A stretch of DNA of 64,000 nucleotides, taken from Promethearchaeota archaeon. Lineage in GTDB: Archaea; Asgardarchaeota; Lokiarchaeia; Sigyniarchaeales; SOKP01. Position numbers and translations under genes: made by a program. The notes beneath the pieces were generated by a model. That model made no database searches, had not been told where the DNA came from, and saw only the letters and a list, made by a program, of their open reading frames with translations. This document shows, one piece after another, positions 18,031-21,958 of this stretch (positions are counted from its first letter, which is position 1; every line of letters begins with the position of its first letter). Location: contig JAEOUA010000003.1 in the NCBI GenBank assembly GCA_016839555.1, positions 451,610 to 515,609 of the forward strand, written 5' to 3'.

Positions 18031-19307
18031 CTCAACCATTGCAAAAGCATAAATATAACAATAAAAAAGTAAAAATATTAACGGGAAACCATGCCGCTGC
18101 TCATGCATTCAGACAAGCTAAAGTAGGAGTGATTTCTGCTTATCCAATAACACCACAAAGCCCTGTGGTGGAGAAGATATCTCAATTTACCGAAGAAGGA
18201 AAAATGAATGCAAAATTTGTTAAAGTCGAATCCGAACATTCTGCCCTCGCAGTGTGTTGCGCTGCTTCCGCAACAGGATCTCGCGTGGGAACTGCAACTT
18301 CGGCCCATGGGTTAGAATTTATGTATGAGATGCTCCCATGGGCATCGGGCAATAGGTTGCCTATTGTTATTAACCTTGCCACAAGAGCTCTTGGAGGGCC
18401 ATGGTCCGTTTGGACAGATCATCAAGATTTTATAACCATTCGTGATGTTGGGTGGATCCAACTGTTTTGTGAAGATAATCAAGAAATTTATGATACAAAC
18501 TTACAAGCATTCAAAATTGCGGAGGATCCAAGAGTATTTTTACCCGCAATAGTAGGATATGACGGCTATATCTTATCACATACTATGATGCCTGTTTTAT
18601 TGGAGGAACAGAAAGAGATTGATGAGTTTTTGCCTCCTATTCAACATCATATTAATTTATCGGATATCTCCCAAGTGAAGGGTGTAGATCCTGTGACAAC
18701 CCCTAATGTCATTAAAAGGAAGGAAGGAACTGCACCAGGTTATTATGAATATAGATATGCATTACAAAAAGCCCTTGAAAATTCTATAGATATTGTAAAA
18801 GAGGTTCACGATGAATTTGCTAAAAAATTTGGAAGAAGCTATGGAAATGGAATATATAAAACCTTTCTCACAGAAGATGCCGAAACAATTATTTTTGCGA
18901 TGGGCTCCGTTGCTTCTCAAGCAAGACATGCAATCAATAAATTACGAAATGAGGGATTAAAAATAGGATTAGTCAGTTTAAAACTTTTTAGACCGTTTCC
19001 TACCGATGATTTACGAGATTATATGAAGCAATTTAAAAATGTGATAGTATTTGATAGGGATATTGGCTATGGATATGAAGGTGTTTTATGTTATGAATTA
19101 AAATCAGCTCTCTATGGGGTGGATAATCCTCCATTTATTAAAGGTTTTATTGTAGGACTTGGAGGAAGAGATGTTACTGATAAGCATCTAATAAAAGGAG
19201 TTAAAAAAGGGCTTGAATATTCTAAAAAAAAGGAATATTTAAATAGAACTGAATTTATAGGATTAAAATTAAAACAATTAGACTTTTTACATGATGGTGA
19301 AGAGTAA
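18027..19307 (+). CDS. porA: 2-oxoacid:ferredoxin oxidoreductase alpha subunit
   Basis: GNHAAA, AYPITPQS, ESEHSA, TATSAHGL, GLGGRD. Confidence 0.95.
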   Translation: MTQPLQKHKYNNKKVKILTGNHAAAHAFRQAKVGVISAYPITPQSPVVEKISQFTEEGKMNAKFVKVESEHSALAVCCAASATGSRVGTATSAHGLEFMYEMLPWASGNRLPIVINLATRALGGPWSVWTDHQDFITIRDVGWIQLFCEDNQEIYDTNLQAFKIAEDPRVFLPAIVGYDGYILSHTMMPVLLEEQKEIDEFLPPIQHHINLSDISQVKGVDPVTTPNVIKRKEGTAPGYYEYRYALQKALENSIDIVKEVHDEFAKKFGRSYGNGIYKTFLTEDAETIIFAMGSVASQARHAINKLRNEGLKIGLVSLKLFRPFPTDDLRDYMKQFKNVIVFDRDIGYGYEGVLCYELKSALYGVDNPPFIKGFIVGLGGRDVTDKHLIKGVKKGLEYSKKKEYLNRTEFIGLKLKQLDFLHDGEE

Positions 19308-20202
19308 AATGGTAAACGTAATGGATCTTCCAGAAGAGGAGCTTATTTACCCCGGCACGCGTGCATGTGCTGGTTGTGCGATGGCCTTAATTTATCGAAT
19401 AGCCTTAAAAGCTCTGGGTCCTAAAACAATTTCAACCGTCCCCGCTTCTTGCCTCACAGTCCTTCATGGAATGCAAGGGTTCTGTTCAACAAAAATTTCT
19501 GTACTTCATACTCCTTTCGCAACCACTGCAGCATCCGCTTCTGGTATCGTTGCTTCCTTAGAGGAAAAAGGATTAGCTGAGGATATTTGTGTAATTGCTT
19601 TTGCTGGAGATGGAGGTACCACCGATATTGGAATTCAGAGCTTAAGCGGTGCTGTAGAGAGAGGTACTAATTTCATCTATGCATGTTATGATAATGAGGC
19701 TTATATGAATACAGGGGTTCAGAGAAGCGGTTCCACACCATTGGGAGCAAAAACAACTACAACTCCTTTTGGAAAGATTGGGCATAAGAAAAACATGCCA
19801 AAAATATTAGAAGCTCATGATATACCTTATGTGGCAACGGCAAATGCTTCATATCCATTCGATTTATATGAAAAATTTCAAAAAGCGAGAAAAATACAAG
19901 GTCCAAAATATATCCATATTTTAGCTCCATGCCCGCCGGGATGGGGATATGATCCAAAACACACTATCAAAATTGGAAGATTAGCTAACGAAACCGGATT
20001 CTGGCCATTATATGAAGTAATAGACGGAAAATTTAAATTATCTCAGAAAAGTAAAAAGTATTTAGATCCAAATAAACGAAAACCTATAGAGGAATATCTT
20101 GAGGTACAGAATAGATTTGATAGGATAACTCCTAATGAGATTAAATTATATAAAGATTACATAGAGAAAATTTGGAACGATATTAAAAAAAGAATGAATT
20201 AA
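19291..20202 (+). CDS. porB: 2-oxoacid:ferredoxin oxidoreductase beta subunit
   Basis: ACAGC, TPP-binding GDGG...DNEAYMNTGVQRS, PCPPGW; start could be the ATG at 19309. Confidence 0.95.
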   Translation: MMVKSKMVNVMDLPEEELIYPGTRACAGCAMALIYRIALKALGPKTISTVPASCLTVLHGMQGFCSTKISVLHTPFATTAASASGIVASLEEKGLAEDICVIAFAGDGGTTDIGIQSLSGAVERGTNFIYACYDNEAYMNTGVQRSGSTPLGAKTTTTPFGKIGHKKNMPKILEAHDIPYVATANASYPFDLYEKFQKARKIQGPKYIHILAPCPPGWGYDPKHTIKIGRLANETGFWPLYEVIDGKFKLSQKSKKYLDPNKRKPIEEYLEVQNRFDRITPNEIKLYKDYIEKIWNDIKKRMN

Positions 20203-20271: not shown

Positions 20272-21093
20272 ATGTTGAAAATTTTTATATATGATCAAAT
20301 AAAAGATACTTGGATTGAAGAAACTCAAATCCTCTTATTCCACGATTTAGCTGCGATATTTGACGAGGATTCTAAACAAATATTTGTATGGCAAGGTAAT
20401 AACATAAAAAAATCGAAAATAAAGAACGGTTTGGAGTGTTTAGAGGATTTACTTTCAAAAACAAGTAATTACAATTGGAAAATCATTACAAAAGAAAATA
20501 ATTTTCCCGATATAATTCATCAAACAATAGATTCAATGCTTAAAGCCACTAAAGAGCGAAAGCAAGAAGAAAAACTAAAATATAATCATTTCCTTACTAT
20601 TAGGCTTTCTTTTATACTTTTAATTGGAATTTTAGTATTTATCGTTCTATCTTGTATTAATTTAATAATTCCTTTATTTAGTTCAGTTATTAATAAAGCG
20701 TATCAAATTTCAGCTTCTAAGTACAATTTATGGTTGAATCTTTATCAAATTTTTACGATATTTACATTAATTTTTTTAGCATGCAATTTTATTATTAGCA
20801 TCTATGAGCAAGAAATCGAAATGTTTATTTTTTCTCTAATTGGGATTATTATTGATATTGGAATATTACTTTACTTAAGGCAAGGAATTTTTTTATTTAT
20901 CCATCAACCAGGCTCTACTTATTCCCTTTATTTGATTTCAATTGATGATCTTACAACTTTTATATTATTAAACTTGTCTTCAATTTTAATTATTTTGTGT
21001 TCTACTTTCTATAAACTTTATAAATTTGCTTTAACATATTGGAAATATATCTTAATTTCAAGTAGAAATGATATAAATCTTGGAAGCCGCTAG
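20272..21093 (+). CDS. Gelsolin-like N-terminal domain fused to four transmembrane helices
   Basis: DLAAIFDEDSKQIFVWQG resembles the gelsolin D.hhhD....hhhW.G signature; four hydrophobic segments from about aa 108. Confidence 0.6.
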   Translation: MLKIFIYDQIKDTWIEETQILLFHDLAAIFDEDSKQIFVWQGNNIKKSKIKNGLECLEDLLSKTSNYNWKIITKENNFPDIIHQTIDSMLKATKERKQEEKLKYNHFLTIRLSFILLIGILVFIVLSCINLIIPLFSSVINKAYQISASKYNLWLNLYQIFTIFTLIFLACNFIISIYEQEIEMFIFSLIGIIIDIGILLYLRQGIFLFIHQPGSTYSLYLISIDDLTTFILLNLSSILIILCSTFYKLYKFALTYWKYILISSRNDINLGSR

Positions 21094-21958
21094 ACTCTTA
21101 AAAAACCTTGAAAAAGAAGATCTCAGAATTTTAATGGCAATTGAAATTGGGATGAAAAGATCTGATTATGTAGCGATAGAAAACGTGCGTTTTTATTCAC
21201 GATATCCAATGGAAGAGACTTTATATCGGCTTAAAAAAGTGCATAAATACGGATTAACGATTAGAAATTCTGCCGAATATCAAATTTCTTATAAATTAAA
21301 TTCTATTGGATATGATGTATTAGCACTCCACGCTCTAGTAGAGAAAAACGTAATTAGTCAATTAGGGCCAGCAATCGGGAAAGGAAAAGAATCTGACGTT
21401 TATAGTTGTATGGATAATGAGGAGAATATCTATGCGTTAAAGATTTATCGGATGGGACGCACTTCCTTTAAAAATATTAAAAAATATAGAAGTCTTATTG
21501 GAAATCGAAGTCATTTATCTTGGCTTTATGTTAATCGCCTTGCCGCAAAAAAAGAATATAAAGCCTTAAAAAAGATATATCAACTTGATTTAAACATTCC
21601 AAAACCAATTGGATATAACAGACATATAATTGTTATGGAATATCTACGAGGAAAAGAATTGGCATATTATAAAGATATTAATATTCCTCAATATATTTTT
21701 AATGAGATTATTGATCAAATGAAATTGGTCTATCAAAAAGTGGGATTAATACATGGTGATTTAGGAGAATGGAATGTGATATGTGATGAATCTGGGAATA
21801 TTTTAATTATAGATTGGTTGCAATCTGTTTCTGCAGATCATCCTAATGCTAAGATGCTTTTAAAAAGAGATATTCGAAATATCTGTTCTTATTTTCGAAA
21901 AAAATATAGAATTGAGTGTAATACTAAAAAAATTTTGAAAGAATTTTTAGAAGAATAG
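21080..21958 (+). CDS. rio2: RIO2-type serine/threonine kinase
   Basis: N-terminal wHTH (LRILMAIEIGMK, GYDVLAL), IGKGKESDVY, GRTSF, IHGDL, IIDW. Confidence 0.93.
   Translation: MEAARLLKNLEKEDLRILMAIEIGMKRSDYVAIENVRFYSRYPMEETLYRLKKVHKYGLTIRNSAEYQISYKLNSIGYDVLALHALVEKNVISQLGPAIGKGKESDVYSCMDNEENIYALKIYRMGRTSFKNIKKYRSLIGNRSHLSWLYVNRLAAKKEYKALKKIYQLDLNIPKPIGYNRHIIVMEYLRGKELAYYKDINIPQYIFNEIIDQMKLVYQKVGLIHGDLGEWNVICDESGNILIIDWLQSVSADHPNAKMLLKRDIRNICSYFRKKYRIECNTKKILKEFLEE

Follow-up and report, generated by a model that had tools for sequence, protein, structure and literature searches.

The window analysed here, a 64,000-nucleotide stretch of DNA from a Promethearchaeota archaeon, contains a gene whose product of 273 residues (P0001) is, judged by its sequence and its predicted structure, a Lokiarchaeia integral membrane protein composed of a cytoplasmic N-terminal gelsolin domain, a basic stalk and four transmembrane (TM) helices, with two short loops that are predicted to come together on the outer face as a small sheet of high conservation. 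What is new is the placing of a gelsolin-homology domain in an integral-membrane architecture; the gelsolin domain superfamily itself is known. A membrane protein with an actin-directed gelsolin head is in our judgement the best overall explanation of the data, and we give it a probability of about 0.5; that the head itself binds actin, which we infer from sequence and model, is likewise a matter of about even odds.

Results

The gene and its product

The open reading frame (ORF) 20272-21093 on the forward strand encodes this candidate membrane-anchored gelsolin-domain protein, the parts of which are collected in Table 1. The two motifs on which the earlier note had based its proposal of a gelsolin-like membrane protein are present letter for letter: residues 24-42 read HDLAAIFDEDSKQIFVWQG and residues 69-79 read WKIITKENNFP. 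Close homologues form 14 clusters when grouped at 90% identity; at 50% there are 64 representatives, and Met1 is the common alignment start for all homologues of the protein.

The ORF has a G+C content of 26%, like its surroundings, in a genome of 26-30% G+C. Since such a composition favours long hydrophobic or lysine-rich ORFs, and since Pfam and NCBIfam gave no match, it could be argued that the ORF is spurious or that the motif match arose by chance in an AT-rich genome. However, full-length homologues with 35-78% identity are carried by many assemblies, they form two well-separated subfamilies in the tree, the model is very confident (pLDDT 93) and the gelsolin profile matches are significant. 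The conservation and the fold results have thus already refuted this explanation, whose probability we regard as practically nil.

Table 1. Coordinates of the gene, its parts and its flanking genes in the window, and of other gelsolin-domain ORFs in the same genome (contig and position).
Feature	Position	Strand	Evidence
Whole gene, 273 aa plus stop	20272..21093	+	ORF and homologues
Gelsolin-homology core, aa 1-78	20272..20505	+	AF2 model, Foldseek, VIA, profile against PDB
Strands of the gelsolin core, aa 2-8, 13-16, 26-31, 36-41, 70-72; long helix, aa 47-63			AF2 model
Second gelsolin-fold helix continuing as K/R-rich stalk into TM1, aa 79-106	20506..20589	+	Helix 80-101 in models
TM helix 1, aa 107-136	20590..20679	+	Hydropathy and full-length model
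Short beta-hairpin, predicted outside, aa 137-147	20680..20712	+	Strands 138-140 and 143-147 in model
TM helix 2, conserved YE at cytoplasmic turn, aa 148-179	20713..20808	+	Alignment, hydropathy, model
TM helix 3 (G197 91%, Y201 89%), aa 182-202	20815..20877	+	Model and conservation
Predicted outward-facing loop 3, QGIFLFxxQxGST, strand 219-223, aa 203-223	20878..20940	+	Conservation, charge, model
TM helix 4, running on into the cytoplasm, aa 224-264	20941..21063	+	Hydropathy and model
Short cytoplasmic tail, pLDDT <60, aa 265-273	21064..21090	+	Full-length model
rio2 (RIO-type kinase), downstream, TTG start	21080..21958	+	Pfam
2-oxoacid:ferredoxin oxidoreductase beta subunit, upstream, 69-nt AT-rich gap	19291..20202	+	
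Gelsolin-domain ORF, own genome	C1:409019-409543		PF00626 scan
Gelsolin-domain ORF, own genome	C1:322720-322938		PF00626 scan
Gelsolin-domain ORF, own genome	C5:351529-351735		PF00626 scan
Gelsolin-domain ORF, own genome	C10:292142-292345		PF00626 scan
Gelsolin-domain ORF, own genome	C4:156451-156609		PF00626 scan
Gelsolin-domain ORF, own genome	C12:3270-3452		PF00626 scan

The N-terminal head

For some 90 residues, profile and fold both bear out the gelsolin-like N-terminal domain that had been proposed from the letters of the DNA. A profile (A4) made from 49 N-terminal domains of the family only was searched against the PDB, and all 35 matches obtained at E<=1 were gelsolin-family chains: villin (2.2e-16) and gelsolin (1.2e-13), each of these values being summed over repeats, the single-domain chains ProGel (6.8e-6), adseverin A3 (1.9e-5) and gelsolin G3 (4e-4), and Loki 2DGel (2.3e-5) were among them, and Sec23 and Sec24 gave no match to this profile in the PDB. 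A profile of 14 full-length sequences also placed villin, ProGel, adseverin and gelsolins on top, at marginal values (9e-4 to 0.4).

The AF2 model of the head (pLDDT 85.7) has the element order of gelsolin, E-E-E-E-H-E-H, with a central beta-sheet lying between the long helix and a second, shorter helix. Foldseek, one of the checks that the earlier note had recommended, led from this model to the gelsolin family: ProGel bound to actin was the best match (7c2f_B, 6.8e-6), followed by adseverin and gelsolin domains, and the matches, among the 50 listed, were gelsolin-family domains or gelsolin segment-1 complexes. VIA, an all-versus-representatives comparison independent of Foldseek, gave ProGel (7c2f_D) a Z score of 10.1 with an rmsd of 2.7 over 84 residues and filled ranks 1-14 with gelsolin-family chains; the gelsolin-like domains of Sec23/24 were found at Z 7.5 and 5.8 with an rmsd of 6.5. 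The signature D...WxG, which corresponds to the DWG motif of PMC7444086 and the WxG of PMC9433394, is kept among the 53 relatives, with D31 conserved in 81%, W40 in 89% (the rest having Tyr) and G42 in 100%. Because of the profile matches, the fold matches and the conservation of D...WxG, the head is, as far as sequence and model can tell, a true but divergent gelsolin-homology domain whose nearest relative is the single-domain Asgard form ProGel, and at the sequence level its likeness to gelsolin lies far beyond chance.

The Pfam model itself behaved otherwise. The earlier note had named PF00626 (Gelsolin) for the gelsolin repeats, and at the gathering cut-off of this model, 21 bits, the domain stays below threshold: the whole protein has no match at E<=1, and the genome-wide PF00626 scan that picked up six other gelsolin ORFs missed this one. 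When 13 family heads were run against Pfam, one gave a match at E 0.13, and MPK1_gelsolin_C appeared in four at E 0.021 or weaker. The miss by PF00626 is a detection limit, not a structural criterion. In hhalign, A4 aligned with the 2DGel of the same genome at a probability of 72% and with a single-domain gelsolin of 165 aa at 6%, both being weak single-sequence templates.

Conservation within the head peaks at E16, H24 and D25, which form a family-specific cluster, and P79 and L90 of the second helix are each conserved in 91%. D25 is invariant and is aligned with the strand Asp of the type-2 Ca2+ site in villin and gelsolin repeats; at positions 43-50 the family has no conserved acidic residue that would correspond to the helix-start Glu of that site, and the type-2 ligand set (strand Asp and helix-start Glu) is incomplete in the family. 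Since this Glu is not conserved, no gelsolin-type calcium switch is to be expected, and any activity of the head would probably be calcium-independent, as in ProGel and 1DGelX. In the long helix, the buried face is conserved (positions 50, 53, 57, 60, 61 and 64); the solvent-facing positions (47-49, 51-52, 55, 58-59 and 62-63) vary among the family members and mostly carry charged residues, and no conserved exposed hydrophobic residue is evident on this helix in the family alignment.

Membrane module and topology

Hydropathy detects four long hydrophobic segments, all of them beyond residue 104, and no hydrophobic or signal-like segment at the N-terminus. The full-length model, built with 53 relatives (pLDDT 93, pTM 0.79), also has four TM helices, so that two methods agree with the number that had been read from the sequence, and in this model TM1 is reached without a break from the second gelsolin helix, whose extension forms the basic stalk. 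Across the 53 relatives, the mean number of lysines and arginines is 5.3 in the stalk, 1.0 in loop 2 (3 residues) and 6.3 in the C-terminus, and 0.4 in the hairpin loop and 0.47 in loop 3, the last two being net negative (loop 3, -1.7). From this distribution, head and C-terminus are both predicted to be cytoplasmic under the positive-inside rule, and the small sheet of loops 1 and 3 to lie outside. A cytoplasmic domain, which the proposal of an actin-directed function had called for, is thus what the topology prediction over the 53 relatives gives.

The most conserved segment of the protein is loop 3 (aa 203-223), with a mean column conservation of 0.53 versus 0.43 for the gelsolin core; F209 is conserved in 94% and I222 in 87%, and the full-length model builds the loop as a short helix and a strand (219-223). 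Since this is the best-conserved stretch, the membrane module is probably more than a passive anchor, and the conservation of the loop may reflect contact with a surface, extracellular or intramembrane partner. In fold searches with the full model, residues 103-262 or so matched generic four-helix bundles only: de novo designs at Z 16 and 14, and cornichon, cytochrome oxidase subunit III and vinculin/talin bundles at Z of about 10-11, scores of this size being in the non-specific range for helical bundles. A claudin-like arrangement of four TM helices plus an outer sheet was considered; no claudin was among the matches listed with the full-length model as query. MscL (E 0.19) and DUF6849 (E 0.83), obtained when the whole protein and aa 100-273 were run against Pfam and NCBIfam, were discarded as noise-level scores. 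The ESM Atlas, queried by features (aa 100-273) and by shape, returned only the protein's own Promethearchaeota cluster.

Distribution and subfamilies

A full-length profile matched 155 of 400 genomes of the phylum at E<=1e-5. Strong full-length matches were confined to one order, in which they occur in 112 of the 134 genomes of the protein's own family and in 14 of 14, 4 of 4 and 1 of 1 genomes of the others; as judged from these sequences, the membrane-gelsolin family is near-universal in its order. The order includes both Ca. Lokiarchaeum ossiferum, whose homologue is UYP46179.1 (NEF87_002464), and Promethearchaeum syntrophicum MK-D1, whose homologue is QEE14692.1 (DSAG12_00505); the two proteins are annotated as 'hypothetical protein'. 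In the phylum's genomes outside the order the family was not found as a membrane protein, and the weak matches there (about 1e-6) were set aside, as they cover head positions only and belong to ORFs of the ProGel-like or 1DGelX-like sort, which are soluble and have no TM segment. The conservation across Asgard genomes that the earlier note had asked about therefore holds nearly throughout one order, and the membrane form was not found among the genomes of the rest of the phylum. The genome studied here (92% complete) has one copy of the gene; some genomes have two to four.

The tree of 53 representatives splits into two subfamilies. The protein belongs to the 'short' clade (28 rows, support 98/95); the other clade includes the proteins of both cultured species and has a charged cytoplasmic C-terminal tail that is absent from the 273-residue protein. 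This tail has a conserved motif of the approximate form [DE][LI]xx[MI]R[LK]x[SA][KR]P[TS]IL[RQ]DK...ELKEIE, carried by L048:3923-4774(-) of Ca. L. ossiferum, by L047:3920-4780(-) of P. syntrophicum and also by P0048, P0055, P0058, P0065 and P0070-P0072. By eye it resembles the WH2-like linker AKTMLKDV of the 2DGel in the genome studied here and the LKDV/LRRV motifs of the literature. A reading of the tail as WH2 was rejected: Pfam had no WH2 or thymosin match, and a tail profile searched against the PDB found nothing relevant.

Two further loci were observed. In a genome of another class (G058), L057:1826-2962(-) is a remnant of the family, extending from the YIWNGP core through the stalk to the start of TM1 and lacking the first 32 or so residues of the head, that continues in frame into an EamA/DMT transporter (PF00892, 2.5e-33); the fusion may stem from a rearrangement, from mis-binning of the contig or from a chimeric assembly. 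P. syntrophicum has a second, divergent paralogue of 235 aa at L056:3884-4591(-) (G143:C1, about 1,375,900-1,376,560). Its head is gelsolin-like (8e-14 with profile A4), and it has a stalk, too, and a hydrophobic region, which is shorter; the cultured species would therefore have membrane-bound gelsolin heads of more than one form.

Actins and soluble gelsolins of the same genome

The Lokiactin gene (P0078; G000:C1:435578-436720, L001:1474-2619) encodes 381 aa, 97% identical across the family, and lies 35 kb upstream of the membrane-gelsolin gene on the same contig; in three other genomes the distance is 17-55 kb. This proximity is regional synteny at most. Further actins with 83% and 39% identity are found on contigs C7 and C10, and weaker actin-family ORFs on contigs C3 and C4. 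The genome also has six soluble gelsolin-domain ORFs (loci L009-L015, G000), one of them a 2DGel whose linker is acidic and whose C-terminal domain is rich in Cys, and the other five with a single domain and long soluble extensions. None of the six, including the 1DGelX-like ones, has a TM segment.

Gene neighbourhood

The overlap of the stop codon with rio2, which the earlier note had taken as a sign of co-expression, is real: the stop codon (21091-21093) and the TTG start of rio2 at 21080 give an overlap of 14 nt, and the downstream ORF is identified as rio2 by Pfam (RIO1 2.3e-54, Rio2_N 5.6e-19). The TTG start, and hence the overlap, is plausible because the frame opens after a TAA at 21074-21076, 4 nt upstream of the TTG (21080-21082), and because the next ATG would remove part of the winged-helix domain Rio2_N. 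Since the two genes overlap and are probably co-translated, the protein could act with Rio2 in small-subunit ribosome maturation or in signalling, and indeed 28 of 30 loci from the protein's own family have the order POR-alpha, POR-beta, gelsolin gene and rio2, usually followed by a convergent methyltransferase, with rio2 directly downstream on the same strand. These 30 loci are not independent, however, as they come from one family, and the spacing between the two genes ranges from overlap to about 150 nt, or 2 kb in one genome (G147). In the sister family (G131, G132) the gene stands beside methyltransferase, LSm and GGACT genes, with rio2 about 3 kb off, and in L. ossiferum and P. syntrophicum POR, rio2 and the other neighbours of the block are absent beside the gelsolin gene. 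Such a pattern is expected of a housekeeping block whose synteny is decaying and, as far as these sequences go, not of a functional operon. We know of no functional link between Rio2 and gelsolin, and a joint role of the two proteins is very improbable. Because the housekeeping block is conserved in one family and rearranged in its sister, the overlap says little on function, and co-translation with rio2 in this genome, plausible as it is, is uninformative in this respect.

Discussion

If the head binds Lokiactin, be it as monomer or at the side or end of a filament, a gelsolin-type actin-binding or capping activity would be placed at the inner face of the membrane; the protein could then tether filaments or control them locally, for example in actin-filled protrusions, and the outer loop might contact a surface or an extracellular partner. 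In favour of this, the profile matches lead to actin-regulating gelsolins and not to Sec23/24, the best structural match is ProGel in its actin-bound form, the head is predicted to be cytoplasmic in an organism rich in Lokiactin, and the genome encodes Lokiactin, further actins and six soluble gelsolins. Against it, the long helix is little conserved on its exposed face, where most residues are charged, the cluster E16/H24/D25 is specific to the family, ProGel itself binds rabbit actin weakly, conservation is highest in the outer loop and not in the head, and the domain stays below the PF00626 threshold.

Gelsolin folds without known actin binding do exist, Sec23/24 being an example, and the fold could have been re-used here in the same manner for a partner other than actin. 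The main function would then lie in the four-helix module and the outer loop, the module acting as a sensor, a scaffold or a subunit of a membrane complex and the head as a cytoplasmic adaptor or regulatory domain. The pre-eminent conservation of loop 3, the variable exposed face of the long helix and the family-specific cluster E16/H24/D25 all suit such a role, and the Sec23/24 domains, at Z 7.5 and 5.8, are indeed among the structural matches of the head. However, the profile matches are exclusively gelsolins, villin, CapG, adseverin and Asgard gelsolins, with none to Sec23/24, actin-bound ProGel ranks structurally clearly above Sec23/24 with their rmsd of 6.5, and the membrane module, matching generic four-helix bundles only, hints at no specific function. 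We consider re-use of the fold a serious contender, at rather less than even odds, and we retain a membrane protein with an actin-directed gelsolin head as the preferred explanation.

More tentatively still, and with the balance of probability somewhat against it, the protein would be a single polypeptide that holds, caps or nucleates Lokiactin filaments on the inner side of the membrane and, by way of its well-conserved outer loop, couples them to some structure at the cell surface; among the archaea closest to eukaryotes it would then be the first actin-binding protein of the integral-membrane kind. If true, it would constitute a primitive transmembrane link between the cytoskeleton and the exterior, of the kind needed for the growth of protrusions, for adhesion and for crawling. 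To our knowledge, no mode of attachment or regulation of Lokiactin at the membrane has been described. Cultured Lokiarchaeia crawl and put out protrusions that are highly dynamic and filled with actin (PMC9834061, PMC13716822), and the presence of the gene in both cultured species, where it is annotated as hypothetical, makes it a concrete candidate for an actin-membrane link. The published co-immunoprecipitation with Lokiactin is, by its authors' own account, biased against transmembrane proteins and under-samples membrane proteins (10.1101/2025.11.30.690169). Were the head to bind Lokiactin, a direct coupling of membrane and cytoskeleton would predate the eukaryotes; were it not to do so, the family would exemplify the early recruitment of a gelsolin fold to another membrane function.

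Our search of the literature found no description of a gelsolin head in an integral-membrane architecture, which agrees with the statement of the earlier note that it knew of no characterised protein of this kind; some Loki '1DGelX' entries of PMC9433394 may be members of the family. Neither of the two Akil papers (PMC7444086, PMC9433394) mentions 'transmembrane' or TM segments, and the accessions of the cultured species (UYP46179.1, QEE14692.1) were found in no searchable paper. The classes of Asgard gelsolins published so far are ProGel, 1DGelX and 2DGel with or without a linker and a Zn domain, single- and double-domain forms of which bind actin (PMC7444086, PMC9433394), and the L. ossiferum study reports GelX, 2DGel and single-GH proteins with disordered regions.

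Comparison with known systems

The family shows both similarities to and differences from the systems already described: (i) ProGel of Thorarchaeota (PDB 7c2f, PMC7444086) is likewise a single domain of the gelsolin/cofilin type of about 90 residues; it shares with the family head the core ...D..K.IYLW.G..., and neither has a complete gelsolin Ca2+ site. However, ProGel is a free soluble protein, whereas in the family protein the second helix is predicted to run into a conserved four-helix membrane module; E16/H24/D25 are specific to the family. The binding of ProGel to actin has been solved, and it binds rabbit actin weakly, with a Kd of about 337 uM (PMC7444086); the family protein is known from sequence and models. 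(ii) The Asgard 1DGelX (Akil et al. 2020; 'GelX' of L. ossiferum) likewise joins one gelsolin domain to a C-terminal part of another kind, and Thor 1DGelX is calcium-independent, the family protein also being without the Ca2+ ligand set. Its domain X, in contrast, is described as a soluble coiled coil or as disordered, where the family protein has four predicted TM helices instead, and the family thus stands outside the soluble ProGel/1DGelX class. (iii) The 2DGel proteins of Loki, Thor and Heimdall and the eukaryotic gelsolin, villin, adseverin and CapG have a repeat homologous to the head (profile values to 2e-16, Z 7.5-9). Unlike the family protein, they comprise two to six repeats, are soluble and Ca2+-regulated and have WH2-like linkers. 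Their association with membranes is at most peripheral, by way of phosphoinositides, and we know of no 2DGel, gelsolin, villin, adseverin or CapG that is an integral membrane protein. (iv) The gelsolin-like domains of Sec23/Sec24 (COPII) have the same fold at lower similarity and show the fold in use at a membrane, but they are parts of soluble coat proteins, stand in another domain context and have no profile match to the family head. (v) With ERM proteins and with talin and vinculin the likeness is one of functional analogy only, namely the coupling of actin to the membrane that is proposed for the family protein; their folds are unrelated, and they are peripheral adaptors on lipids or receptor tails and not a single membrane-spanning polypeptide. 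Taken together, the four conserved helices predicted to cross the membrane after the head therefore point to a distinct architecture within the gelsolin superfamily.
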